41,480 nucleotides of DNA from Promethearchaeota archaeon Loki_b32 (GCA_005223125.1 NJBH01000033.1:1-41480); one strand, 5' to 3'; shown: positions 2,502-32,946, counted from the stretch's first letter. The notes: generated from the sequence alone by a model not told the origin. Program-made: numbers and translations.

Positions 2502-3401
2502 TCAGAGATTAAAAGCTTCTAATGCTTTTTTAGCTACAATATCTCCCCATTCTTGAACAAAATGTCCCGCTTCCTTAATTCTTAAAGGTTTTGGACATCC
2601 CTTAATATAAGTCCTTAAAATACGCATGACCGATGGTCCTAATACAGGATCTTGCATCCCAACTGCCATAAAAGTTTCACCGGACCAATCATTCTGAAAC
2701 CAGGCTCTAGCCCGTTGTGAAATCTTTGCTCCAGGGGCATCAGGATGATCAGGTACCATGTTTGGAAATCTTCGAACTCCTGCCTTGTATTTAATATCTG
2801 GAAAAGGAGCATTATAGGCTGTTTTCTCATCCTCTGTTAAATGAGGACATTGTCGTGCTAATAACCGTCCTGGTTCAATATCTGGATGACTATTATTCCA
2901 ATCGCGCCAAAATATGAATCCTTTTGAAAGTGGAACATCACCTACCCCTAACCAAGTATTCATTAATAAAAGTCTAGAAAATCTATTTGGCATATCCATA
3001 GGTAATGTAAGCCCAAGTAAACCTCCCCAATCTTGACAAACGAGTGTGATATTATTAAGATCAAGGCGTTTTATAAATTCTAATAGAGAATTTCGGTGAA
3101 AATCAAAGGTATATACTTGTTCTTCATTAGGTTTATCAGACTTGCCAAATCCAAAAAAATCTGGAGCAATTATATGATACCCGGCATTTAAAAAAATAGG
3201 AATCATTTTACGATACAAATAACTCCATGTAGGCTGTCCATGTAGACATAAAAATACTTCATTAGAATCTTTTGGTCCTTCATCAATGTAATGCATTCTT
3301 AAATTTTCATACCCATTAAGATCATCAATGTAATGAGGTTCATATGGAAAGTTAGGAAGTTTCTCAAATCTATCATCTGGAGTTCTTAAAAATTCTATAA
3401 T
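2502..3401 (-). CDS. Haloalkane dehalogenase (alpha/beta hydrolase); true start probably ATT 3401 or ATA 3398
   Basis: LHGQPTWSYLYR, QDWGG nucleophile, AGHFVQE; the conserved N-terminus EFLRTPDDRFEKLPNFPYEPHY lies upstream of the called ATG at 3296. Confidence 0.88.
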   Translation of the reverse strand: MIEFLRTPDDRFEKLPNFPYEPHYIDDLNGYENLRMHYIDEGPKDSNEVFLCLHGQPTWSYLYRKMIPIFLNAGYHIIAPDFFGFGKSDKPNEEQVYTFDFHRNSLLEFIKRLDLNNITLVCQDWGGLLGLTLPMDMPNRFSRLLLMNTWLGVGDVPLSKGFIFWRDWNNSHPDIEPGRLLARQCPHLTEDEKTAYNAPFPDIKYKAGVRRFPNMVPDHPDAPGAKISQRARAWFQNDWSGETFMAVGMQDPVLGPSVMRILRTYIKGCPKPLRIKEAGHFVQEWGDIVAKKALEAFNL

Positions 3402-3524
3402 AATTAATCACTATATATTATTATTTTAAAGATTCTTAAATTTGAAATAAGCTTGATAATTAAGTGATATAATCTCATATTAATTTTATTAAAAAGAAGA
3501 GAATAGACTATATAGGTAAATTTC

Positions 3525-4694
3525 ATGTCTGAAAAACTATATTGGAAAGACGCTTATGAAACTAAGTTTTCTGCAAAAGTAATCGCAATTAATGAAGAAG
3601 GGGTTGTGCTCGAAAAAACGTTATTTTATCCCGAAAGTGGAAACCAAGCGAGTGATCTAGGAAGTTTATCAATTAGAAATCTTAAATTTAAAGTTGATAA
3701 AGTATCTAAAGATGGAGAACATATTGTGCATCATATCTCTTCTGATTTTAAAGATAAAATTAATGTTGGAGATGAAGTTGATGGGGAAATTGATTGGGAA
3801 TATAGATATGGTATAATGAAAGCTCATACTTCTCAACACATTTTTTCAGCTGTGATTAAAAATAAGTTTGATATTGATACTGTTCGGGCAAATCTTAACT
3901 TTGAAGATGTATTTCTCCAAATGTCTCAAGAAATAGACTACAAACAATTGAATGAGATTTTAACTAAAGTTAATTCTATTTGTACTTCCCATAATCTAAC
4001 AGTGGACGCACGTGTAATACCAAATATAGAAGCTGAAAAAATAACTGAAAGGATAAGAAGTGCAATTCCAGATGAATCTAAAATAAGATTAATCGAAATA
4101 AAGGATTTAGATTTAGTGTGTTGTGGAGGAACTCATATTCAAAATACGATTGAAATTGGTAGGATATATACTTATGAATTTAAAAAAGGAACAGAGATTA
4201 GATATTTTGTAGGAAATAAAGCTTTACTGTTAGGTTCTAAAATTAATTTAGAATTAATTGCTCTAGCTAATGAATTAAATAATCCATTAGTGAAAACTCT
4301 CAATGTAATTAAAAAGCGTATGAAACTCTTTGAAACTCACCAAGAACAACAAAGAGATTTATCCATTATGTTCTTGGAAGCACTATCTAAATCACCCCTT
4401 AAAGAAATCAACGAAGTTTCACTATTTTACATCAATTTTAACGTTGATATAAAGATTTTAAACAAATCATTAGATAATTTTCCATCAAATTCACTTATTA
4501 TTGTAAAATTTGAAGACAACAAAATAAGAATACTCTCTCCAAATGAAATAATAGATTCGAATAAATTATTACAAGAACTTATCCAGAAATATGGTGGAAA
4601 AGGTGGAGGAAATCCTAAATCTTCTCAAGGTTTTTTAGAGAAAATGCCTGAAAAATTATTATCTGAGATAGAATTACTCCTTTCTAGAGATTGA
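3525..4694 (+). CDS. alaX: Alanyl-tRNA editing protein AlaX with C-terminal DHHA1 domain
   Basis: TLFYPESGNQ..D.G, HTSQH and CCGGTH Zn ligands, GGKGGG DHHA1 motif. Confidence 0.85.
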   Translation: MSEKLYWKDAYETKFSAKVIAINEEGVVLEKTLFYPESGNQASDLGSLSIRNLKFKVDKVSKDGEHIVHHISSDFKDKINVGDEVDGEIDWEYRYGIMKAHTSQHIFSAVIKNKFDIDTVRANLNFEDVFLQMSQEIDYKQLNEILTKVNSICTSHNLTVDARVIPNIEAEKITERIRSAIPDESKIRLIEIKDLDLVCCGGTHIQNTIEIGRIYTYEFKKGTEIRYFVGNKALLLGSKINLELIALANELNNPLVKTLNVIKKRMKLFETHQEQQRDLSIMFLEALSKSPLKEINEVSLFYINFNVDIKILNKSLDNFPSNSLIIVKFEDNKIRILSPNEIIDSNKLLQELIQKYGGKGGGNPKSSQGFLEKMPEKLLSEIELLLSRD

Positions 4695-4744
4695 AAAAGA
4701 ATTAAAATATAGGTATTAATAAAATTAGGAAGAATTATTAAAAA

Positions 4745-5629
4745 TTATTTAAAACCGTATTTTTCTAAAAACGCTGTTAATCGTGTACGATGGAATTTCA
4801 AGCCTAAATCATCAGGATTTTCACCAAAAGCAAGTGCTAATAATTCAGTGATGTATAATACAGGTATACCAAATGTATTATCTCCAATTTTTTCTGCTTT
4901 CTTCTGATTATTATCAAATTGCTGATAACATGCAGGACAATTAACAATAATTGCTTCAGCGCCAGCATTCATAGCACTAATTAATTTATTTGATAATATT
5001 TGCATTGCTGGCTCTTCTTCTGTATTTCCCGTTCCCGTACCACAACAAAGCACTTCTTCTTCATAATCGACTGGAATTGCTCCTGTTGCCGCGACGAGTT
5101 CTCTTAGTTTAACAGGATTCATAGGATCATCAGTTTGCAGTTTCTCTGAGGGTCTATTATAGTGGCATCCCGTATGGCAGGCAACTTTTAATCCACTCAA
5201 TTCTTTTGTTATATGCTCATTTATTTTATCAACATATTCATGTAAGACTTCTACAAAATGTTTCACATTGACAGTTCCTTTGAATTCCTTCCCAACTGTT
5301 TTTAGAATTTTATTAATTTTATCTTTTTCATGATCATCATGCTTTAATTCTTCATTAACAAGTTTTAATGTTTGAAAACACCCATTACATAAAGAAATAA
5401 TATTTTTTCCTTCAGCTTCAGCGATAGTAAGATTTCTTGCGCCCATTGCCATCCAGCTTAGATGGTCAACACTATTGAATCCAACTGGATCTGGACAGCA
5501 TGCAAATGCAGCATCAGAGGTTTTTATACCGAGTTTATCAAACACTTTTCTTGCTGAGGCTTCTATAAAAGGAATTCTGTTTCCGATAACACATCCTTGA
5601 AACATTTTATATTCTTCCGCTTTAGCCAT
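4745..5629 (-). CDS. hdrB: Heterodisulfide reductase subunit B (CCG domains), stand-alone
   Basis: FQGC, ACCPDP, LCNGC, HTGCH..RP, LCCG, NCPAC..QFD, IPVLYITELLALA. Confidence 0.9.
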   Translation of the reverse strand: MAKAEEYKMFQGCVIGNRIPFIEASARKVFDKLGIKTSDAAFACCPDPVGFNSVDHLSWMAMGARNLTIAEAEGKNIISLCNGCFQTLKLVNEELKHDDHEKDKINKILKTVGKEFKGTVNVKHFVEVLHEYVDKINEHITKELSGLKVACHTGCHYNRPSEKLQTDDPMNPVKLRELVAATGAIPVDYEEEVLCCGTGTGNTEEEPAMQILSNKLISAMNAGAEAIIVNCPACYQQFDNNQKKAEKIGDNTFGIPVLYITELLALAFGENPDDLGLKFHRTRLTAFLEKYGFK

Positions 5630-5803
5630 TATTAATTCCTCTTTCTATTTTCTTAAAATAGATGATATGTATTTTTATTTAATAATATTTAGATCTATTA
5701 AAATTACATTAAAAAATTTGTTAAACAAATCAAAAAGTACTGGATTATAATCAAGATAAAAAAAATAAATATAGAAAGTAAAAAGCTTATACTTTATTGT
5801 AAA

Positions 5804-6238
5804 TTAATCCTTTTTTAACTTCCTTCTAGCGATTATCGTGAGTATAATACCTACAAATCCATAACTGCCATGGGCAATTTGTGTAATAATCGCCTGCATA
5901 TCGGAATAAATTGACCCTTCGAAAATTCCTGTAATAAAGAATATTATTAAACCAATTAATCCCATGCCAGCACCGAGACCTATAATAAATTTCCCTAATC
6001 TGAAATGATCCATAGCAACAATTAAAGCTCCAACAATGACAGCTATTCCTCCGCTCATAGCGATGTATCCTAAGATTTGCACAGCTAGCGAGACAATTGC
6101 AGCTACATCCGGTCCAACATCTGCTGCGATTATCCCATAAAGAGTCTCAAAAAAAGTAATGCTCCCCACAGTAGAACTGATAATCATTAAAATTCCACCA
6201 ACTATACATGCTAAAATCCATATCCGCTTTTTTCCCAT
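5804..6238 (-). CDS. Hypothetical 4-TM membrane protein, paralog of 8322-8945
   Basis: Hydrophobic segments; shares GGILMIISST.GSI, GG.AVI.GAL and FR.GK with 8322-8945. Confidence 0.75.
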   Translation of the reverse strand: MGKKRIWILACIVGGILMIISSTVGSITFFETLYGIIAADVGPDVAAIVSLAVQILGYIAMSGGIAVIVGALIVAMDHFRLGKFIIGLGAGMGLIGLIIFFITGIFEGSIYSDMQAIITQIAHGSYGFVGIILTIIARRKLKKD

Positions 6239-6371
6239 CGTTTTTTACACTTCGAACATTCATTTTAAAATTAAGTATCTATGATTTATTTCAAGAATAT
6301 ATAAAACTTTTTTCAATAAATTAATAGGTTTATAGACTTATTTTGATCCAAACGAGTAGTAAATTAGATGA

Positions 6372-7193
6372 CTAAGTTATAATCCTCTGGGGGTGAGTAT
6401 AAATATTCATCCTCGCTCCGCGCGCAAATCCAATTAAAGTAATTCCATAGGCAAAGGCTAGTCGAATCCCAGATTCAATTGCTGCAGAAAAAGAAGCAAC
6501 AATGGGGATCCTTGCTCTTAATGCTTTTAAAACTGAATCACCTGTCAATCTACCTGTCGAAGTTAGAAACACATTATCAAAATTAAGTTCTTTCAATAAT
6601 ATTTCTCCAATAACTTTATCAATCGCGTTGTGTCTACCTATATCTTCTTTAACGCTTAATAATTTTCCGTTAATATCGAATATGGCGGCTCCATGGCAAC
6701 CGCCAGTCTCCCGATAAAGCGGAGTTTTGACTTGCATTTTTTTTATGGCAGATAATATCGTGCTCGCACTAATCTTTATATTATCCTTTGCTTTAATTGC
6801 ACTTCTTATATTAGCTTTATCAAGGCTTTCTTTAATTAAATTTCGCCATGGAGATGATATACCACATGTAGTATCAACTACACGACTCACGGGATTAATA
6901 TCAAGATTTTCAATTTCAAAATCAATCTCTTCTTTCAACTCAACAAGAATCGAATTTTCTAATTCATTTACTTTGATTTCTTTAATATCTTTTATTGAGT
7001 CAATTATACCTATTGAAAATAGAAATCCCGCTGCTAATTCTTTTAAATCTTTAGCGAGACAAATGATATTCACAATCTGCATAGAATTAACATACAAATC
7101 AATTGGCGTTTCATATAGAACTATATCATCGATCTCTTCTTTCCTATTTTTCTTTATTCTAAATATCTTTACTTTTCTTTTAATCAAGGTCAA
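6372..7193 (-). CDS. fdhD: Formate dehydrogenase accessory sulfurtransferase FdhD
   Basis: ELAAGFL, TTCG, TGGCHGAA, EDIGRHNAIDKVIG, STGR, LIGFARG. Confidence 0.93.
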   Translation of the reverse strand: MTLIKRKVKIFRIKKNRKEEIDDIVLYETPIDLYVNSMQIVNIICLAKDLKELAAGFLFSIGIIDSIKDIKEIKVNELENSILVELKEEIDFEIENLDINPVSRVVDTTCGISSPWRNLIKESLDKANIRSAIKAKDNIKISASTILSAIKKMQVKTPLYRETGGCHGAAIFDINGKLLSVKEDIGRHNAIDKVIGEILLKELNFDNVFLTSTGRLTGDSVLKALRARIPIVASFSAAIESGIRLAFAYGITLIGFARGARMNIYTHPQRIIT

Positions 7194-7299
7194 ACCGTTA
7201 AATAGAGAGATTTGAATTTTATTAGCTTGAATAGTATTTAATATTTTCTCTAAATATTAAAAAAAAAGATTATTAGATCTTCTTGGTTTAAAACAGAAT

Positions 7300-8238
7300 T
7301 CATATAATCTGATAAGTTTTTTGTGTGAAATTATCCCGTGTATAAAAGCCAAACTTTTTGTATAGTCCCAAAGCTTTTTCATTTTTGGTATCAACAGATA
7401 AATTAATTATTGTACACCCTTTCTTTCGAAGTGTTTCAATTCCAAATGCGAGCACGGCGCTCCCTATTTTATGATGTTGATAACTTGGAACAACACTTAA
7501 ATCTCCAATTAGACCAATACGATCTTGTTTCGGATTGAAATATGCATCACAAAACCCAACAATTTTATCTTTTTCATAAGCGATACAATAATCAACGATG
7601 TGATCTCTTTTTAATGCTTCTTGTATTTCTTGCCATTTCTTTTCCGTTATTGCTGCAAACTTAAATGATCCTTGAAAAGCCTCATTTAATACAGCAATAA
7701 AACTAGCATAATCATCTATCTCCTTTTGAGTCCGAATTTTAATACCCTCCGGAATACCAGGATTAGAAAATAAATCAAAATCATCCAAACGCATAGACCA
7801 GTTATAATTAACTGGTCTGAAGCCTAAATTCTCTAATTTCTTATCAAAAGGTGCCGATAATTCTCCGAATGTTTGAAATAAGAGTTCTGGAACATTTAGC
7901 TCCTTTCCAAGATTTAAAATAGCATCAATTAATTTTCCAGGGAGCTCTGATTTAATATATTCAGGTAATACACCATATATAACAAGCAAAGCATCTTTAT
8001 AGAGTGGAATATTGCCTACACCCACAAAAGCAATAATTTCACCTTGCTTATTTTCAAAAATCAAAAAGTCTCGTGAAAAGACAGTCTCTTTACCCAATAT
8101 TACATGAACAAACTCTTCAGTCAATTCAAATGTAGTTTCAGGATTTAAATATTTAGCCATTTGATTGTACAAATCTACAATTATAGAAAGTCCAATTGTG
8201 TCATCATATGGTTTAATCTTAAAGAAATTCGCTTCCAT
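7300..8238 (-). CDS. Tandem-domain GNAT acetyltransferase
   Basis: V.PSYQHHKIGSAVL motif A, N.KALGLYKKFGF. Confidence 0.85.
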   Translation of the reverse strand: MEANFFKIKPYDDTIGLSIIVDLYNQMAKYLNPETTFELTEEFVHVILGKETVFSRDFLIFENKQGEIIAFVGVGNIPLYKDALLVIYGVLPEYIKSELPGKLIDAILNLGKELNVPELLFQTFGELSAPFDKKLENLGFRPVNYNWSMRLDDFDLFSNPGIPEGIKIRTQKEIDDYASFIAVLNEAFQGSFKFAAITEKKWQEIQEALKRDHIVDYCIAYEKDKIVGFCDAYFNPKQDRIGLIGDLSVVPSYQHHKIGSAVLAFGIETLRKKGCTIINLSVDTKNEKALGLYKKFGFYTRDNFTQKTYQII

Positions 8239-8321
8239 AATTTATTAAAATTGTAATTAGATATTTAACAATAACGGTTAGTAAAAATTCTTACTCAATC
8301 TAAATTTTTAGGGGAAAAACT

Positions 8322-8945
8322 TTATTCTCTCTCAAAAGTCTTGCCACATTCACTACAGAACTCAGCATTAAATGGTAAAGATGCTTCACAGCTTGGACAA
8401 GAAATTTTTTGAAAAGGAATTGGTGTAGTAGAATCAGTTTCTTCCTTTTCTTCTGTAATTTCAGCTTCTTCTTGAATTTTTTCAGGTTTTTTAATAAAGT
8501 TTCTCCCAATAATCGCAACTGTAACTCCCCCAAATTGTAACCCCGTATTATATGTGAAAAACCCTTCCAGTTTATCTAAATAAAGTAGAATCTGAGGATC
8601 AGTAACAATATTTGTCATGTCAACAATTTGTGAAATTAGCCAAATGATTAATGCAAGTGTACCAAAAGTTAATCCAATCCCAACAAGCCACTTTCCAAAT
8701 CTAAATTGTTTTATTGCTATAAAAAGAGCTCCTATTATTACTGCAACTCCTCCTATATCAGCGATCCATCTCATTATAGTAATTAATATTTCTAAAATTG
8801 GTTTTGTCCATGCGAGGTTTGAAGGGATTTGAGTATTAATTAATCCATATAGAACTTCATAAATTCCAATACTTCCAATGGTGGAACTAATGATCATTAA
8901 AATTCCACCTATAATTAGAAGGATTATTCCTAATTTATTTGGCAT
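8322..8945 (-). CDS. 4-TM membrane protein with C-terminal zinc ribbon
   Basis: Hydrophobic helices, CPSC-x10-CSECG. Confidence 0.75.
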   Translation of the reverse strand: MPNKLGIILLIIGGILMIISSTIGSIGIYEVLYGLINTQIPSNLAWTKPILEILITIMRWIADIGGVAVIIGALFIAIKQFRFGKWLVGIGLTFGTLALIIWLISQIVDMTNIVTDPQILLYLDKLEGFFTYNTGLQFGGVTVAIIGRNFIKKPEKIQEEAEITEEKEETDSTTPIPFQKISCPSCEASLPFNAEFCSECGKTFERE

Positions 8946-8995
8946 ATTATTAACCTATTGAATTATTAATAAAAGATTTAGTAAATTTAGGAGAT

Positions 8996-9847
8996 TTATG
9001 CTGCAACAAATAATCTACCGTTGGAACTATTGGAAATTTCACCAGTTTTTTTATCAATTTTAGAATGATTCTTCTCAACTGAATGATCGCCACTATATTC
9101 AGTAAATTTTCCTTTGATAATATCACCGTTCATTAATTCGATTTCTTCTACTTCACCCAATTTCTTATATGAAGGAAGGATTCTCGCTACTTTACCTTTA
9201 ACAACAATGGTTCCACGTACTTGATCTGCTCCAATACACCTGTCACAGTCCCCTTCAACGATAATAGTACCTCCGTGACTGTGAATACCCAAGAAAGAAC
9301 CTGCTGCACCACAAATTAGCGTAGGAAATCGTTTTGCAGGTTTCGAACCATTGACCCATGTTAAGGCTTCATCACCTATCTTACCCTTCACTTTTATTAA
9401 ACCATTTTGCATTCCTTTCCAATTTCCTCTATAAGCAGCACCAACATAATGTCCTGCATCTCCAGTAATTTCTAATTCACCACCTTTTAACATAGCACCA
9501 GCCCAATCATCAGCACTTCCATTAACTAGTATTTTTCCTCCAGACATATTATTTCCTACGTGCATTCCTACATTGTCATTTATTATTATTTCTCCACCAC
9601 TCATTTTTTCTCCGATTCTTTTGACATTTGAAAGATTTCCATCGACTATAATTTTAATCTCATTTAATTCTCCTCCTTCACCAGTAACATCGAAAAAGTC
9701 TCCTATTGTTTTTTCTTCATTTCCATGATATACAGTTAATTTTTTTATATCTGCTGCTGATTTTCCTGCAAATGCATCTGGTGTTATAGTGTCAGCTTCT
9801 AACGGAAATTCATATTCTTTTTTTAATTTTAATTTGATTTCAGCCAT
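8996..9847 (-). CDS. fwdC: Formylmethanofuran dehydrogenase subunit C
   Basis: PLEAD.ITPD, GXGXG repeats (IG..MSGG, AYRG.WKGM); operon context. Confidence 0.92.
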   Translation of the reverse strand: MAEIKLKLKKEYEFPLEADTITPDAFAGKSAADIKKLTVYHGNEEKTIGDFFDVTGEGGELNEIKIIVDGNLSNVKRIGEKMSGGEIIINDNVGMHVGNNMSGGKILVNGSADDWAGAMLKGGELEITGDAGHYVGAAYRGNWKGMQNGLIKVKGKIGDEALTWVNGSKPAKRFPTLICGAAGSFLGIHSHGGTIIVEGDCDRCIGADQVRGTIVVKGKVARILPSYKKLGEVEEIELMNGDIIKGKFTEYSGDHSVEKNHSKIDKKTGEISNSSNGRLFVAA

Positions 9848-9851
9848 TTTT

Positions 9852-11180
9852 TTATTCTCCCTTTTTCTTTTTAACTGCTTCTATTAATTTTTCTAATATT
9901 TCTTTATCAGTTAGGCATTCACCTGGTGCCTCTTTCACTTTTCTTAATCGTAGAGGAACACTATCCATACGATAGGCAGTTCCCTCACACTCAATTCCTG
10001 CTATAGCAGGTGGTAAAATAATATCAGCGTTTACAGATGTAGGTGTATGATGAGGTTCAATGACTATTAAAGGATATTTGAACATATTTTTCACGGATGC
10101 TGCAGGAAAATTACTTGCAGGATCAGAAGCTACAATTAGAGATGCATCAATCTCATCTCTCATCAAAACATCAACAGAAGAGAATTCTCCTGGATTATAA
10201 CGAGGATATCCTCTTGAGAAATCTATAGAATAAGAATATCCTGTTTGCCATGAGAAAACTTGATTTGCCCCAGCAACATTATAATGGCCTCGCATAGGAG
10301 TTAATAAAAATTTAGTGTGATCATTCAATTCCCGTACGAGGCATATAGCAGCATCTATATTTCGATGGTGTGATAAAGTTTGTGTTAACCCCATACCGAA
10401 AAATATAACTCCAAAATTACAGGATTTCATAGTTTCTACTAGTTCTTTAACTTTTTCTATTGGAACACCCGAAATTTCGTCTGCATCTATTTCTACTCCT
10501 CTTAAGATTGCTCTGATGGCATTTATTAATTCATAATCTTCACTAGGATTTATTTGAACATGTATATCAGCAATTTGGGCTGTATGTGTGTTCCTAGGAT
10601 CAACAACCACTATAAACCGATCATTTCTACCATCTTTCCTAAAATATCCACGAATAAAATCACTATACCTAGAAAGATGTCTAGGATGAGCATGTACGGG
10701 ATTTGAACCCCAAAATATTATAAGATCTGCTCTATTTTTATATTCACCTAAAGTAGAAGTAGGAGCACCAACATCTTGAATAGCTAATAACGAGGGACCA
10801 TGACATACTGAAGCTGTATTATCTAATATACTTCCTAAAATTTCAGCTAATTCTACTCCTTTACCTTGAGCTTCACACTCAGTACTGGAAAATCCATAAA
10901 GTAGTGGTCTTTTAGCTTTTATCAAAATATTAGCTGCTTTATCAATTGCTTCATCCCAAGAGACTTCCTTAAATGACCCTTTTTCTTTTATGAGTGGTTT
11001 GTCATACCGATGGTCACTGGGATTTGAAGCAAAATACTTTTTGGTGCCTATTTGACAACCATTTCGTACTTCTATGACTTTTTCTTCTTTTATATCAATA
11101 TCCACTTCGAGATCATCACAAAGGGTTCCACAAAAAGGACAAATTACATCTGTTACTGTTCTAATTTTTTTAGCTACCAT
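9852..11180 (-). CDS. fwdB: Formylmethanofuran dehydrogenase subunit B (Cys form)
   Basis: CPFCGTLCDD, DNTASVCHGP, WGSNPVHAHPRH, PMRGHYNV, GTAYRMD. Confidence 0.95.
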   Translation of the reverse strand: MVAKKIRTVTDVICPFCGTLCDDLEVDIDIKEEKVIEVRNGCQIGTKKYFASNPSDHRYDKPLIKEKGSFKEVSWDEAIDKAANILIKAKRPLLYGFSSTECEAQGKGVELAEILGSILDNTASVCHGPSLLAIQDVGAPTSTLGEYKNRADLIIFWGSNPVHAHPRHLSRYSDFIRGYFRKDGRNDRFIVVVDPRNTHTAQIADIHVQINPSEDYELINAIRAILRGVEIDADEISGVPIEKVKELVETMKSCNFGVIFFGMGLTQTLSHHRNIDAAICLVRELNDHTKFLLTPMRGHYNVAGANQVFSWQTGYSYSIDFSRGYPRYNPGEFSSVDVLMRDEIDASLIVASDPASNFPAASVKNMFKYPLIVIEPHHTPTSVNADIILPPAIAGIECEGTAYRMDSVPLRLRKVKEAPGECLTDKEILEKLIEAVKKKKGE

Positions 11181-11182
11181 TT

Positions 11183-11578
11183 CTATGCCTCCTTTAATAA
11201 ACTAATTAAACCTACTGCATCTAAAACTTTACCACTTTGTATTACTTCTACACCAGCTTTCATTCCTTTATAAGTAGGCGTTCCACATGCTTGAGAATCA
11301 GGATTTACCACTTGGTTTGCCCAAGGCCCCATTGGTATAAATATTATACCTGGATGAGGTCCTTCTTCAGAAATTGTAGAATAAACAATAACTTCTCCAT
11401 GATCCGTGATTACTTTAACTGGCGTTCCAACAAGACAATCTAATTTTTTAAAATCCTCGCTATCAAATGCACAGATTCCTGCAGCTCTAACATTCTCTTT
11501 TGTGTTTTTACCACCTTCAAGTGCAACTCCTTGATTAATTGTACGACAAGTTATTAAAATTAAATTATTCAAACTCAT
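11183..11578 (-). CDS. fwdD: Formylmethanofuran dehydrogenase subunit D
   Basis: ITCRTINQG, FIPMGPWAN, GTPTYKG. Confidence 0.93.
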   Translation of the reverse strand: MSLNNLILITCRTINQGVALEGGKNTKENVRAAGICAFDSEDFKKLDCLVGTPVKVITDHGEVIVYSTISEEGPHPGIIFIPMGPWANQVVNPDSQACGTPTYKGMKAGVEVIQSGKVLDAVGLISLLKEA

Positions 11579-12300
11579 TCTTCTTTTTCCTCCTTTTCAC
11601 TCCACCTTAATGTTTTTAATCTCACCAAAAGAGGTTCCCAGAATAGCTCACTAAATTCTCCAGATGTTTTCACATCAGTTATTTTTAACTTTACAGCTCC
11701 TGTAGGACATCCATTATCACAAGAACCGCAAGAGATACATTTTTCAGGGTCTACAACGACATTTGGGACGGTTTCCCACCCTTTATCTGATTTTTCAGGA
11801 ACAGATATAGCTCCAGAAGGACACACTTCATAGCAGGTTTGACATCCACCAGGGCATTCTTCATCAACAATGCTAATTTCTCCATCAGTATATTGTTTAA
11901 CAACCCTTTCAATCCCATCATAGCTAGTAATTTTTTTTGCTTCAAATTCTAGCTTGGGTACAACATTTTCTTTTACTATCTGGATGTCAGCTAATTCAAT
12001 CACTTCACCATCTTTTTTTAAGGTTAAAGCACTAAAAGGACACATATACACACAAGTTCCGCAGAAGACACATGCTTCTGGGTCATATATTTCCGGTATA
12101 ATATCTTCTAGTTTAGGAAATCTACGTGAAGTTCCTACTGGACCACGAGAAATAGCATCCTTAGGACAGACTCTAGCACATGTTCCACAGCCTATACATT
12201 TAGTTTTATCCAGTATTAATTCTAAACTTTCAGTTAAGAACTGGACTTTTACATGTTCAATCTCTTTACTTATTGATCTTGATATTTTTGGAAATGAAAT
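11575..12300 (-). CDS. fwdF: FwdF-like polyferredoxin, 4 x [4Fe-4S], 241 aa; apparent ATT start
   Basis: The frame is open from ATT at 12300, preceded by an in-frame TAG and GAGGTG RBS; motifs CIGCGTC..VCP, CVFCGTC..MCP, CPGGCQTC..VCP, CISCGSC..GCP; the ORF track captures only the C-terminal 158 aa. Confidence 0.85.
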   Translation of the reverse strand: MSFPKISRSISKEIEHVKVQFLTESLELILDKTKCIGCGTCARVCPKDAISRGPVGTSRRFPKLEDIIPEIYDPEACVFCGTCVYMCPFSALTLKKDGEVIELADIQIVKENVVPKLEFEAKKITSYDGIERVVKQYTDGEISIVDEECPGGCQTCYEVCPSGAISVPEKSDKGWETVPNVVVDPEKCISCGSCDNGCPTGAVKLKITDVKTSGEFSELFWEPLLVRLKTLRWSEKEEKEE

Positions 12301-12313
12301 TTTCTACACCTCA

Positions 12314-12568
12314 TTAAGATTCTAATAATTCTAATTTAATAGCACTTACAGGGCAAAATTTAATACATACTCCACATCCGTCACAATTATGGGTTCGTCC
12401 CTCTGTAAATATATCATAAGCCATACCATTTTTTACTAAAATTACAGCATTCTCTTGTGTTAAATAACCCATCTCTTTTAATTGATTAAAATTTATAGGA
12501 CAAGAAGTTACACAGATATTACATCCTATACAAGTATTTTTATTTATTTTTAATCGATAAATCTGCAT
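12314..12568 (-). CDS. fwdG: FwdG-like 2x[4Fe-4S] ferredoxin
   Basis: 84 aa, CIGCNIC..SCP and CDGCGVC..FCP; first gene of the fwd operon. Confidence 0.8.
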   Translation of the reverse strand: MQIYRLKINKNTCIGCNICVTSCPINFNQLKEMGYLTQENAVILVKNGMAYDIFTEGRTHNCDGCGVCIKFCPVSAIKLELLES

Positions 12569-15664: not shown

Positions 15665-17010
15665 AATTGAATATTGGTTGCGGAAAAAATTTTGAACCGG
15701 ATTATTGTAATATAGATCTATATGAGGATCTAATAGCTGATAGAAAGATGTCTGCTTTAAATCTTGAATTTGAAGATTATTCTTGTCAAGAAATAAAAGC
15801 AATCCATTTAATCGAGCATTTAGGATTTTATCAATCAATTTATGCATTAAGTGAGTTTTTTAGAGTATTAGAACCAGAAGGTAAATTATTTTTAGAAACT
15901 CCTGATTTAGAAAAGGCTTTTCGTACCTATTTAAACTCAAATTATGAACAAAAAAAAGATATATTAAGTTGGATTTATGGGCTTCCTCATGAAGGCTTAG
16001 AACATAAATTTTGTTTTCCGACCCAATTGCTGCTTGAGATATTTGAAAAGATTGGATTTGAAAATGTAATTCAAACGAGTTTTTATAATAAAGAATCAAT
16101 CCCTACTATAAAATTCGTGTGTACTAAGCCAAAAATTGATGAGGATAGTGAAATTTTTCAAATCTTTTCATCTATTCGAGAAAAAATGTTACTAGAGAAT
16201 GTAGTTAATTTTAAAGATTTGTTTTTAACAAAAGAACAAGAAGATCTTCTAAACTTTTTATTAATCGAGACAATAAATTTTATAAAAAATGGTAGTAAAA
16301 GAATAAATTTTAAGATTATTAAAAAATCGTTGATAACTTCGCCTCAGATAGTTAAAATCTTCATAGATAGTATGAAAAATCTTAGAATATTTACCGATAA
16401 TGAAGGAACTCAAATTTTAGAAATGACAGAATTTCTTATTAGAATTAACTTTCATGAGATTTTACTGGATGCTTTAATGAAAGCTCCTTTAATTCCAGGA
16501 ACTCAGAAAATTATTTTTTCTTCGATTGAATCATTTGGTTTGGGTATGATTGATACACTATTTTCTTCTAAAGCTGAGAAAGATAAGATGATAAAAAAGA
16601 TAAAACAATTATCTCAAGATATTAAAAACCAGGAGCTTCATTTATTTTCTCCTAATATTATAAGAAGAAAATCTTTAGATATATTTTATCAGGGTATTAA
16701 AAGTTTTTATAAACAAGATTATGAAACTGCATTAAATAAATTTCTAACATCTATAAAATTGTACAGAGATAATTTTTTATATTATTGGAACTTAGCAAAG
16801 GTTTTGGTAAACTTAAATTTAAAACAAAAAGCAATTAGGTATTATAAAAGGACATTGAGACTATTGAATTTAACGAAACTTCCGAATAAATCCCAAATTA
16901 AAGAAGATGTTAAAGTAGAATTAAACTCAATAAAAAAACAAAGATTGAAATTACTGGAAATGGAACCAATATTATCACTTGATAAATATCAATCAAATAA
17001 ATTAACTTAA
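15661..17010 (+). CDS. Class I SAM-dependent methyltransferase domain + C-terminal TPR
   Basis: MKLNIGCG, HLIEH, RVLEPEGKL..ETPD; TPR-like YWNLAKVL...AIRYYKRTL. Confidence 0.82.
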   Translation: MKLNIGCGKNFEPDYCNIDLYEDLIADRKMSALNLEFEDYSCQEIKAIHLIEHLGFYQSIYALSEFFRVLEPEGKLFLETPDLEKAFRTYLNSNYEQKKDILSWIYGLPHEGLEHKFCFPTQLLLEIFEKIGFENVIQTSFYNKESIPTIKFVCTKPKIDEDSEIFQIFSSIREKMLLENVVNFKDLFLTKEQEDLLNFLLIETINFIKNGSKRINFKIIKKSLITSPQIVKIFIDSMKNLRIFTDNEGTQILEMTEFLIRINFHEILLDALMKAPLIPGTQKIIFSSIESFGLGMIDTLFSSKAEKDKMIKKIKQLSQDIKNQELHLFSPNIIRRKSLDIFYQGIKSFYKQDYETALNKFLTSIKLYRDNFLYYWNLAKVLVNLNLKQKAIRYYKRTLRLLNLTKLPNKSQIKEDVKVELNSIKKQRLKLLEMEPILSLDKYQSNKLT

Positions 17011-18798: not shown

Positions 18799-19311
18799 AT
18801 GATAGAGGATTTTGATCGAGTCTCTTATATTTTTAGAGATTATTTATATAATTTTGTTAGATTATTGAAAGAAAATTATAAAGAGGATCTGCTTTCAGTT
18901 ATATTGTTTGGTTCTGTAGCGAGGGGAAAATGGAATAATGAATCTGATATTGACCTTTTTATAATATTTACCAATAAATCATCTATAAGAACCGCTATAA
19001 ATAATCGATTAACAAAAATCATATCAAATTACGAAAGAAAATCTAAATTAAAGAATTCTAAAGGGGATCGTATATTTTCTACTATACAGGACATATCATT
19101 GTTATTAAAAGATTTACATACATTTAGAACAATATTTTATGATATTGCGATGGATGGAATCATTTTATTTGATAGAAATCAAACTGGATTTCATTTTCTT
19201 AAAAAAATAAAAAAGAGAATTGAAGAAAAAGGACTTAAAAGGGTTTTTATAAAAGAAAATGATTATTATTGGGAAAGAAATGTTAAATTTGGAGAAATTA
19301 TTGAACTATGA
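18799..19311 (+). CDS. Minimal nucleotidyltransferase (MNT) antitoxin
   Basis: LFGSVARG...SDIDL. Confidence 0.9.
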   Translation: MIEDFDRVSYIFRDYLYNFVRLLKENYKEDLLSVILFGSVARGKWNNESDIDLFIIFTNKSSIRTAINNRLTKIISNYERKSKLKNSKGDRIFSTIQDISLLLKDLHTFRTIFYDIAMDGIILFDRNQTGFHFLKKIKKRIEEKGLKRVFIKENDYYWERNVKFGEIIEL

Positions 19312-22420: not shown

Positions 22421-22510
22421 AATTTTGATATTTATTTTTTCTTGGGTTTAAAACTAATTGTTATTAAAGCAGTCAATATCTTTATTTATTCTTAAAATTC
22501 TATAATTTAT

Positions 22511-24457: not shown

Positions 24458-24561
24458 TATTTCTTACCCTTTATGGATAGTTCTCTCAATTTATGAAAGT
24501 TGAGCATGATACAAATAAAGAGATAGTATTTAAAATTTTTTTTTTAATTTATTTTAAGAAA

Positions 24562-24690
24562 AACCTGCTGTTCCATACCATAAGTGGGAGGAATACTGAG
24601 AGCGAGTTGAATATCTTGAGAAGAGACCAGAAACGTATTTTGAAGCAATTAAGGCTTCTGTAGAAAAACATAAATTTACAATATTTTATA
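24562..24690 (+). repeat. Diverged fragment of korB 3' region (equivalent to ~22170-22305)
   Basis: Encodes PAVPYHKWEEY*ERVEYLEKRPETYFEAIKASVEKHKFTI versus PAVPYHKWAEYRERVEYLEKEPETYFEAIKAAKEKHKFTI in korB. Confidence 0.92.
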
Positions 24691-24757
24691 AAAATAATCC
24701 TTAAATATAAATGCGTTCAATAAAAAATCATTATATCATTATTATAAATTTTCTTGG

Positions 24758-25597: not shown

Positions 25598-25599
25598 TA

Positions 25600-26352: not shown

Positions 26353-26480
26353 ATTATAATTATATGCTTAAATCTATTAATTTCTTATTTTTTTTTACCC
26401 TTTTCTTTAACTTTCTATATTCTTAAAAAACAACAATCAAATAATGTAAATTTAAAAGAGGGGATTTTATTTTTAATAAT

Positions 26481-26810
26481 ATGGATGAAAATATTGATGA
26501 TTATATAAAAAAACAGAAATCTCCTCAAAAAGAAATTTATCAAATTATAAGGAACATCATATTAAAAACCTATCCAGACATTAAAGAGGAGATGAAATAT
26601 GGAGTGCCATATTATGGGAATAAATATTATATTGTTGCATTAAAGACCCATGTTAATTTAGGTTTCTCAATCAAGGGTTTAACAACAGAAGAAATTGGCC
26701 TTTTCGAAGGTACAGGAAAAACAACAAGGCATATAAAAATTAAGTCTCAAGAAAATATTGATGAGGAAAAAATAAAAAAGCTATTAAAAATGGTAAAGAT
26801 AAAAGATTAA
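26481..26810 (+). CDS. DUF1801 (YdhG-like) protein
   Basis: IKEEMKYGVPYY, HVNLGF, EGTGKTTRHIK. Confidence 0.85.
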   Translation: MDENIDDYIKKQKSPQKEIYQIIRNIILKTYPDIKEEMKYGVPYYGNKYYIVALKTHVNLGFSIKGLTTEEIGLFEGTGKTTRHIKIKSQENIDEEKIKKLLKMVKIKD

Positions 26811-26834
26811 GGTAATTAAATTCTAATTAGAATT

Positions 26835-27730
26835 ATGGACGAAACTGACCTATTTATTGTTAGAAAACTATTAGAAAACTCTTAGAAAACTCTCGCTTAA
26901 CTTACAGAGAATTAGCCAATATGACCGATATGTCGGTCAGCGGCATACATAAACGTATAAGAAACCTTGAAGATGATGGGATTATTAATGCTTATATTGC
27001 ACGACCTAGTCTAATAGCATTAAAATATCTATGGGTTGCGATTTTTGGCACTTCTAATGCAAAATCAATGGATGCAGTTAGTAAAGAGCTTGGGCAACAT
27101 GAAAATATCAGCATGGTATGCATAACTGGAGGAAAATTTATCTATATCAAAGCTTATTTAAGAGACATATCAGAACTTCAAGAATATAGTAGTTATGTCT
27201 CAAAAGTGGCTCATATTAGTGAGCCAACTGTAGGAATTATCAATGTGCCTTACATGATAACCCCAGAACCACTTACAAGGATTGATTATAAAATATTAAA
27301 GACTCTTAACAGAGATGCTAGGAAGCCAATATCAGATATTGCAGATGATGTAGGGCTCTCAGCTAAAACTGTTAGAAAACGATTAAACCGATTGATTGAG
27401 AATAAATTAGTTACATTTACCATTCAATGGACGCCGGCATATGCAAATAGTTATTTTACAATTTTTTATCTATTTTTAAACAAAGGTACTAATCTAAATA
27501 CTACAGTTCAAAATCTCAACGAGAAATTTTCTCAGAATATTGCATATTGCTTAACTTTTAGTAATATTCCTCACTTAATTTTATTTTGTACTTTGACGAA
27601 AACTTCTAAAGACACCCAGAGAATTCAAGAAGAATTGCAGACAGAGGGATTCAAGGATATAATTCCACATATTTTCTTATCGATAATGTGGTATAACTGT
27701 TGGGTCGATCAATTACTTAGAACAAAATGA
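26835..27730 (+). pseudogene. Double-HTH Lrp/AsnC regulator frameshifted by an 11-bp tandem duplication
   Basis: ATG 26835 MDETDLFIVRKLLENS*; TTAGAAAACTA-TTAGAAAACTC-TTAGAAAACTC; removing one unit restores colinearity with 29378-30262. Confidence 0.88.
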
Positions 27731-28000
27731 AAAAATTTGATAAGATTACGTTCCCAAATCTCAACCAAATGGAAAAATTTTTGGAATTTTTTGTATCAAT
27801 TCCTTTCCATTTCAGTGTAAAGATGTGAATTTTATTGATATTATTGATTATTTTTTTATTCGAAAGTTTTATGATTTTAAGGATAAATATGCTTTCCTTC
27901 TATTTAGTGGTTATAAGCCCCCTTTGCTTTTTTTTTTCTGTATTAGTGAACATAATCTTATTAGGGCCCCAAACTATATCATAATTAACAGATTTAAAAA
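27731..28000 (+). promoter_or_regulatory. Conserved intergenic module downstream of the Lrp gene (copy 1)
   Basis: Aligns by eye to 30263-30520: TTCCCAAAT.TCAAC...TGGAAAA, TATAAGC, TTTTTTCTG, AGTGAACAT, TTATTAG.GCCCCAA, ATAATTAACA. Confidence 0.75.
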
Positions 28001-28076
28001 AAAATGAAAGGAAAAAGAAAAATGATCTATGACAAAAAAAATTTAAATCCATATCACTACGGAGGAGATTATAAAA

Positions 28077-28961
28077 ATGATGAATAAACAGACAATACTG
28101 ATTGCTGGAGCGACCGGAAACATTGGGGGAGGTGCTGCGGTCGCTTTAGCAAAACGTGGTGCTAGAGTTGTGTTACTCGGGCGTTATTCCGAAAAATTAA
28201 AAGCTAGGGCGAATCTTATCCGTAGTGCTTTATCTGAAGCACAGATCGATTATCAGGATACGGACATTGCCATGCTGGTGGTCGACTTCTCTGATATGGA
28301 GTCTGTGAATCACGCGGCAGCCGAGGCTATGAACCGATTCCCGATGATAAATGGTCTGATACTATCTGTTGGCGTTCTTATCCAAAAAGGTCCGAAACTC
28401 CTGGACAGCGGTCATGAGGTGATGTTTGCTACAAACGTGATGGGGCCGTTTTTGTTCACCCAGCTGTTGTTAAAGAGGATGCAGCAATCAGACGGATTGG
28501 TCCTTCATGTGATTAAAAAATCCTATAAAGAAATCGATTGGGATGATCTTGAAAGCATCAGAAAACACAAGACAGATACGGCATACAACAGGACCAAGAC
28601 ATGCAACCTGGTGATCGCTGCGGAGTTGGCTCGACGATATGCTGGAAAGATCTCCTCTGTAGCATTCAATCCTACGTTCATCATCGATAAATCAGACCCG
28701 GAGTTGGACAAAAGGTGGCCATCCGGATTCATGGGTTTCTTCTGGCGGCTATTGACAGTACTCCTTGCAAAGCCACCTGCGGTCGCGGGTGAGCCTATTG
28801 CGGATCTGATGCTTTCATATCGAGATCGTAGTGCAATCAATGGAGCCTTGTTCAAACTGGATAAACGCGTCAAAAAACCTTATAAGGCAATGAATGACGA
28901 GGTATTAGGAAAAAGGTTGTGGGATGAGTTGGTTCTACTAACAGGATTAAAAGCTGAATGA
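28077..28961 (+). CDS. SDR family oxidoreductase, GC-richer than host
   Basis: GATGNIGGG, MFATNVMG, YNRTK (YxxxK). Confidence 0.9.
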   Translation: MMNKQTILIAGATGNIGGGAAVALAKRGARVVLLGRYSEKLKARANLIRSALSEAQIDYQDTDIAMLVVDFSDMESVNHAAAEAMNRFPMINGLILSVGVLIQKGPKLLDSGHEVMFATNVMGPFLFTQLLLKRMQQSDGLVLHVIKKSYKEIDWDDLESIRKHKTDTAYNRTKTCNLVIAAELARRYAGKISSVAFNPTFIIDKSDPELDKRWPSGFMGFFWRLLTVLLAKPPAVAGEPIADLMLSYRDRSAINGALFKLDKRVKKPYKAMNDEVLGKRLWDELVLLTGLKAE

Positions 28962-29377
28962 ATCCTGAGCACTTATCTTCAGCCTCATATTTCGCTTTCA
29001 GCTGCCGTCTCAATCAACTTATTTTTTATTTCTTTTTTTTGTTATATTTTAAGAAAAAATTGCCATCTATTTAATTCTTTATATCAATTTGTCAAGTGTT
29101 TTATTTCTATATAGTTTTGGCTTTCTTTTCCTTAATTTCATTGTTTTTCTTAAAGATATATTAAAATTCAATCAGGCAATGAGATTTAAAGAAATTGATG
29201 TGAAAACCTACACAAATGACGTATAAGATAAATTTTTTAACTGAATCTCTTTTTTATTTTAAAAAAATCTCTAGCAAGAGAACAAGATTTAGAATTCTAA
29301 CTATTTCAAAATATAAATAATAATGACAATTAAATCATATGCCTTCTAAAAATATTATTTAATTTCTTGTTAGATTT

Positions 29378-30262
29378 ATGGATGAAATTGACTTATTCAT
29401 TATTAAAAAGCTGTTTGTAAACTCTCGCCTTACATACCGAGAATTAGCGGAATTGACCGATATGTCCGTGAGTGCTACTCATAAGCGTATTAATAAACTT
29501 GTAGATGATGGGATAATCTCTGCTTTTATTGCACGACCAAGTGTAATAGCATTAAAATTTCTATGGGTTGTGATTTTTGGCACTTCTAATGCAAAATCAA
29601 TGGATGCAGTTAGTAAAGAGATAGGGCAACATGAATGTGTTGAAAGTGTTGCAATCGGGGGCGGTAAATTTCTCATTATTGTTGGGTTTTTAAGAGATAT
29701 ATCAGAACTGCAAGATTATAGTGGTCATGTCTCAAAAACCGCTCAAATAAGTGAGCCAACTATAGGAATCATAAATGTTCCTTACATGATAACCCCAGAA
29801 CCACTTACAACTATTGATTACAAGATATTAAAAACTCTTAATAAAGATGCAAGAAAACCTATAACAGATATTGCTGATGATGTAGGGCTTTCAGCTAAAA
29901 CTATTAAAAGACGATTAGATCGAATGATTGAAAATCATTTAGTTACATTTTCCATTCAATGGAAACCATTATATGATGTCAGTTTCATAACAATTTTTAA
30001 TCTAATTTTAAATGAAGGAACTGATATATATTCTAAAATTCAATATATTAACCAGAAATACTCTAAGAATATTGTTATTTGCTTTAGCTATAGTAATATT
30101 CCTAACTTGATTACATTAGAAACATGGGCAAGAACTGCTCAAGAATCCCAAAGAATTCAGGAAGAATTGCAAACTGAAGGGTTCAAAGATGTAATCCCCC
30201 AAATTGCTTTATCAGGAGATTATTATGATTGTTGGGTAGATCAATTACTTAGAACTAAATGA
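29378..30262 (+). CDS. Double-HTH Lrp/AsnC family transcriptional regulator (intact)
   Basis: MDEID..I...L..NSR.TY.ELA and a second IDYKILKTL.KDARKP..DIA HTH. Confidence 0.9.
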   Translation: MDEIDLFIIKKLFVNSRLTYRELAELTDMSVSATHKRINKLVDDGIISAFIARPSVIALKFLWVVIFGTSNAKSMDAVSKEIGQHECVESVAIGGGKFLIIVGFLRDISELQDYSGHVSKTAQISEPTIGIINVPYMITPEPLTTIDYKILKTLNKDARKPITDIADDVGLSAKTIKRRLDRMIENHLVTFSIQWKPLYDVSFITIFNLILNEGTDIYSKIQYINQKYSKNIVICFSYSNIPNLITLETWARTAQESQRIQEELQTEGFKDVIPQIALSGDYYDCWVDQLLRTK

Positions 30263-30520
30263 GATATTTTTCTAAATTCCATTCCCAAATTTCAACTAGA
30301 TGGAAAATATTTTGGTAGTTTTAGTTCCAAAATATATTCATTTGAGAGGAAAAAAGCGGATTTTATCAATATTTTTCATTTTTAATTAATTAAATATTTC
30401 ATAATTTCACCCATAACTTTTTATTCCTTTTATTTAAGGACTATAAGCTCTCATTGCTAATTTTTTTCTGTCCAAGTGAACATGCTTTTATTAGAGCCCC
30501 AATCTGTATTATAATTAACA
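30263..30520 (+). promoter_or_regulatory. Conserved intergenic module downstream of the Lrp gene (copy 2)
   Basis: Homologous to 27731-28000 and, in its first ~85 bp, to 37405-37490. Confidence 0.75.
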
Positions 30521-30546
30521 AAAAAAAATAAAAAAGGTGGTAAAAA

Positions 30547-31941
30547 ATTACTCAACTACAAACAATTAAGTATGCGAAATATGAAAGAAAATTAAACTCC
30601 TTTGAAAGGAGATTTTTTAGGTCTCCTAATCAGACTATCTCTATAGTCGCTAGACTAAAAGGCAATATTTCGGAAGATGATTTAAAAGGTGCGTTATATA
30701 AAGTAAGACAGCAGCACCCGTTATTAGGAGTCCGAATTTACGTGGATGAAAACGGCGAACCCTGGTATACAAATGAAAAAGTTCCTGAAAATCCGTTAAA
30801 GGTAGTTCAACGAACATCAGATGGAGATTGGAATCGAGAACTCTTGAATGACTATAAAATACGTTTTAAATTATCAACAGGTCCATTAGCTCGCTTTATA
30901 TTATTGCAATCACCTGAGATTTCTGAAGTTCTCATCATTTGTCATCATGTAATATGTGATGGAACTTCTTTGGCTATATTAGCTCGTGATCTCCTTTTGC
31001 ATGTTGGTAATTCTGATCGAAAAGTACAAGAGATGGCAGAGCCCCCTTTAGCAACTCCAGATAATTTTCCAATAGATATAAAAATTGGAAAAGCCATAAG
31101 GTTCGCAATTAAAAAAATGAACGATTTATGGCAAAAGAAAAAATTAATCTTTGACGAAGAGGATGAAGATAACATCTTTAGAGCATTTTGGGACAACTAT
31201 AATTTTAAAATCATCTCAGTGGAATTAAGTGAAGAAGAAACATCAAATCTTGTTGAAAACTGTAGGCAACACGGAATAACTGTGAATTCAGCTCTTAATA
31301 CAGCTTTTCTAGGAGCACGTAATTCTATCCGAGGACCCTTTAAAGGAGGAAAACGAAATATTATGGTTCCTGTTAACACGCGAAACCACTATAAAAATCC
31401 TATAGGTGAACACGTTGGAGTTTATGTTTCAGGATTTGAGCTGAAATTCTCATATAATCCAAAAAAGGGTTTTTGGGAGAATGCTAAAATTTACAATGAT
31501 AAAGCAAAAGAAAATCTCTACATTAATAAAATATTTGAATTTGCTGCGATCACAGACCTCGTTGATCAATCTATGATAGATGCCCGTCAATTTACGTTTT
31601 TTGGTAATCTTGTTCCCTCAAACTTCAGTAGATATGAAAAAATTCATGCTTACTGTAATGATGAGAAGAATATAGCAAATAAGAGGGCAAAAAAGCAAAT
31701 TCCTAAATTACCTGTCATGGCTATTACCAATCTTGGTCTTTTGGATTATCCTTCAAAATATGGATCATTGGAGTTAGATCGTTTTATATTTGTGACTTCA
31801 GGCACTCCATATATCGAGCTTGTAATCCCTGTTGTCACGGTTGCTGGAAAACTAAGCTTTACAATTAATTACCTAGAAGAAATTACTGACACTGAAACAA
31901 TGGAAAAAATCAATATTGAAGTTTTAAAATATCTAAGCTGA
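30547..31941 (+). CDS. Condensation-domain/alcohol acetyltransferase-like acyltransferase; apparent ATT start
   Basis: HHVICDG motif; the conserved N-terminal RKLNSFERR...VARLKG...QHPLL lies upstream of the called GTG 30742; frame opens at ATT 30547 after AGGTGG. Confidence 0.82.
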   Translation: MTQLQTIKYAKYERKLNSFERRFFRSPNQTISIVARLKGNISEDDLKGALYKVRQQHPLLGVRIYVDENGEPWYTNEKVPENPLKVVQRTSDGDWNRELLNDYKIRFKLSTGPLARFILLQSPEISEVLIICHHVICDGTSLAILARDLLLHVGNSDRKVQEMAEPPLATPDNFPIDIKIGKAIRFAIKKMNDLWQKKKLIFDEEDEDNIFRAFWDNYNFKIISVELSEEETSNLVENCRQHGITVNSALNTAFLGARNSIRGPFKGGKRNIMVPVNTRNHYKNPIGEHVGVYVSGFELKFSYNPKKGFWENAKIYNDKAKENLYINKIFEFAAITDLVDQSMIDARQFTFFGNLVPSNFSRYEKIHAYCNDEKNIANKRAKKQIPKLPVMAITNLGLLDYPSKYGSLELDRFIFVTSGTPYIELVIPVVTVAGKLSFTINYLEEITDTETMEKINIEVLKYLS

Positions 31942-32053
31942 GGTGATTTTTCAAATGCTGCTAATTAAGACCTCAAAAATTAACTCCCTTAATTTTTTTT
32001 AAGACAAAATAACATTAAATGAATTTTTTAAAAATCAACGTGGAGATATGTGA

Positions 32054-32536
32054 ATGAAATTATGGATAATATATAAGAACGGAATTGGATTCTCAAAGAT
32101 TATTGCTGAGATGCTCCAGGATCGCTTGGAGGATTACATCGATGTATCTGTAGGAACTGCTAAAAAGATAGATCCAGCTTTATTAGTTGAAGAAAGGTTT
32201 GAGTTTTTGATGATTGGAGATACTATAATTAAGGAAATCCCTAGTTCGGAAATTCAAAATTGGTTGTTAAAGTATTGGGAAATTTCAAATGAGAGAAAGA
32301 ACACTCTTAAAGCTATATCAGGATTTTATATTGTACAAACCGATATATCAGTTGAACCCTTATGGGTTGAATTTTTTAACAGTAAAGTGAGAGCAGAACT
32401 AATTTTTCCATCAATACTGCGGTTAAGGCTAAATGTGGAAGAATTATCATTAGAAAATGGAACTCCTGAACTAATTAAAAAATATTCGAACGATTTTGTT
32501 GAATTTATTATCAATAATAAAAATTCTATTAATTAA
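32054..32536 (+). CDS. Degenerate flavodoxin-fold protein
   Basis: MKLWIIY..GIGFSKIIAE.L resembles a flavodoxin N-terminus without the S.TG.T loop. Confidence 0.6.
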   Translation: MKLWIIYKNGIGFSKIIAEMLQDRLEDYIDVSVGTAKKIDPALLVEERFEFLMIGDTIIKEIPSSEIQNWLLKYWEISNERKNTLKAISGFYIVQTDISVEPLWVEFFNSKVRAELIFPSILRLRLNVEELSLENGTPELIKKYSNDFVEFIINNKNSIN

Positions 32537-32559
32537 TATAAACTTGGAAAAGGTGGAGA

Positions 32560-32946
32560 ATAACCATAAATGTTTTTATTGTAGACGACGATATTTCAGT
32601 TTTAGAGTTATACAAAAAATTATGTGAAATATTGGGTTTAAACATTATTGATAAAGCAATGAATGGCGAAGAAGCTGTTAGTAAATTTCAGAATTTCATT
32701 ACCAAACCAGATTTAATTGTAATGGATTACCATATGCCATGAAAAAATGGTCTTGAAGCAACTCAAGCAATTTTGGAAATAGATAAAACAGCAAAAATTG
32801 TAATTGTAAGTGGAGATCCAACTATAAAACAAAAGGTATTAGCTTCAGGTGCAATTTGTTTTAAGGAAAAACCGTTTAATCTAACTCAATTATATCAACA
32901 AATAAATTTTTTTAAAGACCAAAAAAAAAAACGTGTCAAATGCTAA
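32560..32946 (+). pseudogene. CheY-like receiver protein with an in-frame TGA (32740-32742) and no ATG start
   Basis: ITINVFIVDDD...AMNGEEAV...PDLIVMDYHMP*KNGLEA...IVSGD...EKPF; missed by the ORF track. Confidence 0.85.

Follow-up and report, generated by a model that had tools for sequence, protein, structure and literature searches.

Probable near-cognate ATT, ATA and ATC start codons behind Shine-Dalgarno motifs in a lokiarchaeal genus

Probable ATT-started genes in a lokiarchaeal contig

The stretch of DNA analysed here (41,480 nt; Promethearchaeota archaeon Loki_b32, GCA_005223125.1 NJBH01000033.1:1-41480), termed the window, corresponds to contig C52 in a metagenome-assembled draft genome of 4.13 Mb and 29.9% GC belonging to Lokiarchaeia (Asgard). 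It carries genes for a haloalkane dehalogenase, an fwdF-like polyferredoxin, a condensation-domain protein and a response-regulator receiver, which a sequence-only reading had proposed to start at ATT or ATA behind Shine-Dalgarno (SD)-like motifs (Table 1). The SD motifs and the ATH codons (ATT, ATA or ATC) of all four genes were found where that reading had placed them. The first three genes are solid cases and are intact, as it had said, while the receiver gene is weak and is treated in the last section. In the three ATT-started genes no ATG, GTG or TTG (collectively NTG) precedes or coincides with the conserved N-terminus, and neither of the signs of a pseudogene, other lesions or relaxed selection, was seen. 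As far as the sequence goes, no other start is possible for them.

Table 1. Positions of the genes and SD motifs discussed (window coordinates unless a contig is named)
Feature	Position	Strand	Remark
Haloalkane dehalogenase gene	2502..3401	-	proposed start ATT 3401
Dehalogenase SD-like AGTGAT	3407..3412	-	includes in-frame upstream TGA (3410-3408); anti-SD duplex -6.2 kcal/mol
fwdF-like polyferredoxin gene, fwd operon	11575..12300	-	proposed start ATT 12300
fwdF-like SD TGAGGTG, then in-frame TAG	12304..12313	-	anti-SD duplex -9.5 kcal/mol
Condensation-domain (PF00668) protein gene	30547..31941	+	proposed start ATT 30547
Condensation gene SD AGGTGG, then in-frame TAA	30535..30543	+	anti-SD duplex -9.3 kcal/mol
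Response-regulator receiver gene, probable pseudogene	32566..32946	+	ATA 32566 aligned with ortholog's ATG
SD AGGTGGAGA ahead of receiver gene	32551..32559	+	
aIF1 gene (locus L109)	same genome, contig C48:127289-127606	-	start ATT 127600

The start region of the dehalogenase gene reads AGTGA-TTAATT-ATT 3401(-), with an in-frame TGA two codons upstream and the first NTG, an ATG, 35 codons in. The protein matches PDB 2xt0 from residue 1 of that structure (E 2e-122), and a start at the first ATG would remove 35 conserved residues; a protein shortened in this way was looked for among the called genes on record and was not found. Among same-genus orthologs the start column holds NTG (ATG or TTG) in nine, ATA in one (the closest relative) and ATT in one. 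The ratio of non-synonymous to synonymous substitution rates (dN/dS) of the N-terminal extension is 0.27.

For the fwdF-like gene (GAGGTG-TAG-AAA-ATT 12300(-)), the first NTG is GTG 12051, which lies 83 codons in and within the second of four cluster motifs, so that a protein begun there would lose 83 codons, including one entire cluster motif and part of the second. The match to FwdF in PDB 7bkb begins at residue 3 (E 6e-42). Seventeen same-genus orthologs show ATG (13), TTG (1) or ATT (3) at the start column, a minimum of two changes on the tree being needed to account for the three ATT; the GAGG core of the SD is preserved in 16 of the 17, and dN/dS of the extension is 0.05. The surrounding fwd operon (window 8996-12568, minus strand) consists of ferredoxin, fwdF-like, fwdD-, fwdB- and fwdC-like genes, among which a weak start is seen in the fwdF-like gene only and could tune the subunit ratio.

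The condensation gene begins with AGGTGG-TAA-AAA-ATT 30547(+) and has its first NTG 65 codons in, and the Pfam match of its protein begins at residue 31, upstream of that NTG. Its start column holds ATT in the ortholog and mostly ATG, with one ATT, in a paralog clade, through which alone a canonical start at this column is known; dN/dS of the extension is 0.18. The SDs of the window genes are complementary, at canonical spacing, to the genome's own anti-SD, which is intact in the 16S 3' end GGATCACCTCCT at the edge of contig C48. An Rfam search of the genome returned no 16S gene, and only this 3' end was located.

Genome-wide enrichment and selection

Enrichment was measured by a homology-free, SD-anchored test, run on this genome and on a second species of the same genus (2.4 Mb). 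Its input consists of open reading frames (ORFs) that have a strong SD close to the 5' end and lack NTG in the first 20 codons, and it scores in-frame ATH at 9-14 nt from the SD core, a spacing calibrated on ATG genes. In this genome, 41 of 61 such ORFs carry ATH at SD spacing (p 6e-16), compared with a background of 19% at interior SD-like sites and 7% at out-of-frame positions. In the second species the count is 30 of 36 and the background 20%, out-of-frame positions in the two species standing at 7-10%. ATT is the commonest codon, CTG is weakly enriched, ACG is rare (2/61), and AAG, AGG, TTA and GTH show no enrichment at the SD-defined position in this test. Because ATH codons are common, a plain per-codon SD scan yields only an approximately 2-fold enrichment. 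A Fisher test of SD-dependence, based on a hand count and partly circular, is suggestive only.

Forced SD-led ATH/CTG starts number 29 here and 24 in the other species, among 1233 testable pairs. After correction for genes with an early NTG, they amount to 3.2% and 2.7% of genes in the two species, and this share is a minimum, as genes that lack an SD escape the scoring; an SD of the same pattern is present on only 19% of ATG genes. Sorted by start codon, strong-SD genes comprise 200 with ATG, 77 with TTG, 20 with GTG and an ATH excess of 36 (roughly 60-65 corrected), which makes ATH about one-sixth of the class. ATH starts thus appear to be a common option and not a rule, taken by about 3% of genes or more. 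The single-copy core gene for uL16 starts at ATC and has no NTG start, and most gene families near that of the initiation factor aIF1 retain ATG. There, automatic start-column detection chose internal isoleucine columns in several families, and only aIF1 is counted as forced. Conservation upstream of the first NTG overcalls when used as the lone criterion, many such stretches being conserved leaders, selenocysteine (Sec) read-through or lesions.

Ortholog pairs were filtered by a codon model against antisense shadow ORFs. Over 32 pairs and 1123 codons, dN/dS of the extensions is 0.104 (bootstrap 0.083-0.127), next to 0.102 for the bodies of the same genes and 0.885 for in-frame leaders of ATG genes. 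ATH is common to both species in 23 of the 32 pairs, the partner otherwise having mostly NTG. ATT and ATA stand at 26:12 at starts, as against 3:20 among exchanges at internal methionine columns (p 4e-5, related sequences not being independent). Judged from these counts, the start-codon pattern is different from that of mutational decay. Internal methionine columns hold 973 ATG and 20 ATA, and ATA mixes with ATT/ATC in isoleucine columns; a variant code in which AUA means methionine is ruled out, as ATA remains isoleucine internally.

These results bear out several expectations of the sequence-only reading: the pattern goes beyond chance genome-wide, both species show an excess of ATH where the SD places the start, the extensions evolve under purifying selection and not neutrally, and ATH is conserved between species. 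Its broader suggestion, that SD-guided near-cognate initiation is routine, agrees with the tests at the level of some 3% or more of genes and fails as a general rule.

aIF1 and the initiation machinery

The same genome encodes a single-copy aIF1 (PF01253; match to M. jannaschii aIF1 4mo0, E 5e-25), whose gene has no NTG ahead of the zinc knuckle. In 62 loci of the family, aIF1 starts at ATT (59) or ATC (3) and never at NTG. Most other genera of the family likewise have ATT/ATC, and one has ATA with an upstream GTG, whereas outside Lokiarchaeia an NTG start is found in 49 of the 51 distinct sequences. ATA or CTG aIF1 starts occur in a few other Asgard families. As a separate observation, aIF1 of other archaeal lineages is seemingly CTG- or ATA-started behind a strong AGGAGG or AGGTG (L435, L451, L402; L271, L274; L252, L257, L258, L260).

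Four near-invariant positions of aIF1 are changed in the family and its sister family relative to other archaea (G11S, G47F, L62A and C68S, local numbering), while loop 1 (RKWGR) is one that they share with Asgard lineages with normal starts. The genes for aIF1A and for the three aIF2 subunits (alpha, beta, gamma) are present and ATG-started. The initiator tRNA (C48:102824-102968, plus strand), once its two introns are removed, has a CAT anticodon, A1:U72 and three G:C pairs in the anticodon stem. The introns interrupt the anticodon loop and the T loop, and the tRNA was missed by both Aragorn and Rfam. The sequence gives no sign of an altered initiator tRNA, its anticodon and identity elements looking normal. 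Unusual changes in the machinery, which the sequence-only reading had suggested looking for, are seen in aIF1 and not in this tRNA. The lineage-wide scope that it had proposed is shown for one genus genome-wide and, through aIF1, for one family, and not for all Asgard archaea. Systematic mis-annotation holds in part: several NCBI records begin lokiarchaeal aIF1 at ATT, and many others shorten it to 62-84 of about 105 residues.

Possible mechanism and alternative explanations

We consider it highly probable that these genes are translated from near-cognate AUU, AUA or AUC codons, now and then from CUG, and that the ordinary initiator methionyl-tRNA (Met-tRNAi) most likely reads them. The SD would hold AUH in the P site and offset the third-position mismatch with Met-tRNAi, and proofreading by aIF1 would be loose enough for AUH to pass; aIF1 made from an AUU start could in turn close a negative feedback loop like that of bacterial infC. 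Since aIF1 is AUU-started, in the manner of infC feedback, and carries lineage-specific substitutions, proofreading may, at about even odds, be relaxed in the lineage. We tentatively propose that this altered aIF1 sets a lowered start-codon fidelity in the family, with AUU/AUA as a fourth routine start class. If true, such a set-point loop might, by analogy, play the part in archaea that autoregulation of IF3 and of eIF1 plays elsewhere, extended over dozens of genes, though we would put this at somewhat less than even.

Several points weigh against this interpretation. Initiation at ATH is read from sequence evolution, the genome-wide tests were run on two species from a single genus, and genomes of relatives do not count as independent samples. 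Where two ATH codons adjoin, the exact start codon is ambiguous, and some ATH cases may be lesions, since other genes in the window are decayed. In Escherichia coli an AUU-started IF3 does not bring about frequent AUU starts, so that feedback by itself would leave the 3% unexplained. In addition, the control for the SD-anchored test, 603 kb of mixed other archaea, is small and mostly of higher GC.

That control bears on the alternative that ATH starts are low-level noise of all AT-rich archaea and nothing special to this lineage. A Kariarchaeaceae tubulin is reported to start at ATT (PMC13394414), near-cognate codons made up about 30% of the putative alternative sites in H. volcanii (PMC7261190), and the ATA- and CTG-started aIF1 genes of other lineages point the same way. 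However, the mixed archaea show no ATH excess, with 2 of 33 against 123 SD+NTG genes (Fisher p 1.4e-5), and the subset below 42% GC (182 kb) has 0 of 2 forced against 37 SD+NTG, small as this control is and thinly as other Asgard classes are sampled; the NTG start of nearly all aIF1 outside Lokiarchaeia also speaks against noise, which we regard as unlikely. Errors of sequencing or assembly, conceivable in a metagenome-assembled draft, are refuted by cross-species conservation, as an identical ATT turns up in other species, assembled independently, and in a genome that consists of one contig, and their probability is negligible.

A further possibility is that dying or silent genes have lost their start codons, leaving ATH in their place. 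A nonsense codon is present in the receiver gene, Lrp and GNAT genes of the window are broken too, and ATA is one transition away from ATG. Yet the dN/dS of about 0.10 in extensions and bodies excludes decay as a general explanation, the affected genes include the single-copy core genes of uL16 and aIF1, most pairs share ATH, and ACG, likewise a single transition away from ATG, is rare whereas ATT, a transversion, is commonest; decay is thus very improbable overall and may fit the receiver gene only. We judge it just as improbable that the N-termini are reached by stop read-through (Sec or pyrrolysine), by a frameshift out of an ATG that lies upstream in another frame, or by editing of AUH to AUG in the mRNA. 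Some forced ORFs of the genome, HdrA-like and MvhD-like, do resemble read-through of TGA as Sec, and an out-of-frame ATG overlaps the fwdF-like SD. The blocking stop, however, varies by gene and species (for fwdF, TAG here and TAA in the relative G019), no slippery heptamer is present, and editing would require three different base changes. Moreover, neither read-through nor frameshifting predicts an in-frame ATH at fixed distance from the SD or an ATG at that place in relatives.

Relation to known systems

Archaeal starts are reviewed as AUG, GUG and UUG (PMC7531240), and SD sites are described in reviews as rare in Lokiarchaeia. The aIF1 of S. solfataricus discriminates against AUU (PMC4705826). 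Bacterial infC, encoding IF3, has an AUU start and is translationally autoregulated (Butler 1987, cited in PMC4705826), and eIF1 autoregulates via a poor start context (PMC4705826). Like infC, lokiarchaeal aIF1 has an SD-led AUU start on the gene of a start-fidelity factor itself; the factor here is aIF1 (SUI1 fold) and not IF3, any feedback is putative, and ATH is found in tens of ordinary genes, switching with ATG between species. E. coli pcnB stands beside infC as a comparable system. The likeness to eIF1 is that the two factors are homologous and that each has a suboptimal start on its own gene, but lokiarchaeal aIF1 has a non-AUG codon and an SD instead of a poor Kozak context with scanning.

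NCBI translation table 11 permits ATT, ATC, ATA and CTG as alternative initiators, an option used (as ATT) in several of the NCBI aIF1 records. There they are rare exceptions, whereas here they account for some 3% or more of genes, with ATH coming close to TTG and outnumbering GTG among strong-SD genes. Mitochondria likewise use AUA and AUU starts and have reassigned AUA to methionine; in Lokiarchaeia ATA stays isoleucine internally and the code is unchanged. The closest Asgard case is atubA of Kariarchaeaceae, with an ATT start called 'rare' (PMC13394414). As in the lokiarchaeal genes, its ATT lies at ribosome-binding-site spacing and the protein is shortened in GenBank, but it is a single Heimdallarchaeia gene for which no genome-wide claim was made. 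Our incomplete search of the literature found no report of genome-wide ATH starts in Asgard archaea, only this single start.

AUH starts in several per cent of genes would offer a natural test of aIF1/eIF1 start stringency on the branch nearest to eukaryotes, and the AUU-started aIF1 makes archaeal aIF1 autoregulation directly testable. Common gene finders would shorten many database proteins of the lineage, first-NTG calling cutting 20-160 residues off about 45 proteins in this genome; gene inventories, structure predictions and expression constructs are affected, and one Asgard tubulin has already been shortened in this way (PMC13394414).

Receiver gene and decayed genes

The receiver gene is probably a pseudogene, and as such weak evidence for ATH starts. 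It has an in-frame TGA at 32740-32742 where relatives have I, H, L or P, and PF00072 matches flank this stop on both sides. The ATG of the syntenic ortholog aligns with ATA 32566 and not with ATA 32560, the codon favoured by the sequence-only reading. Other receiver-domain genes in the genus seemingly start at ATA behind an SD (same genome, C45 (-) 31511; loci L083 and L084).

The HdrA-like (C36 (+) near 16950) and MvhD-like (C50 (+) near 19040) frames open right after an in-frame TGA at a cysteine-like position, a probable case of selenocysteine read-through and a confounder for start-codon surveys. An EF-2-like GTPase gene (C3 (+) near 75833) is broken just ahead of IDHGKT, with TAA where a relative has histidine, through either a lesion or an assembly error. 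Within the window, an Lrp/AsnC regulator gene (about 26833-27730, plus strand) carries a frameshift near its 5' end from an 11-nt tandem duplication, and an intact paralog lies at 29378-30262. A GNAT acetyltransferase gene (18048 to about 18600, minus strand) has in-frame stops in its 5' part and is probably decaying, and a short partial copy (35286-35609, plus strand) of the membrane protein gene at 34395-35096 is also present.

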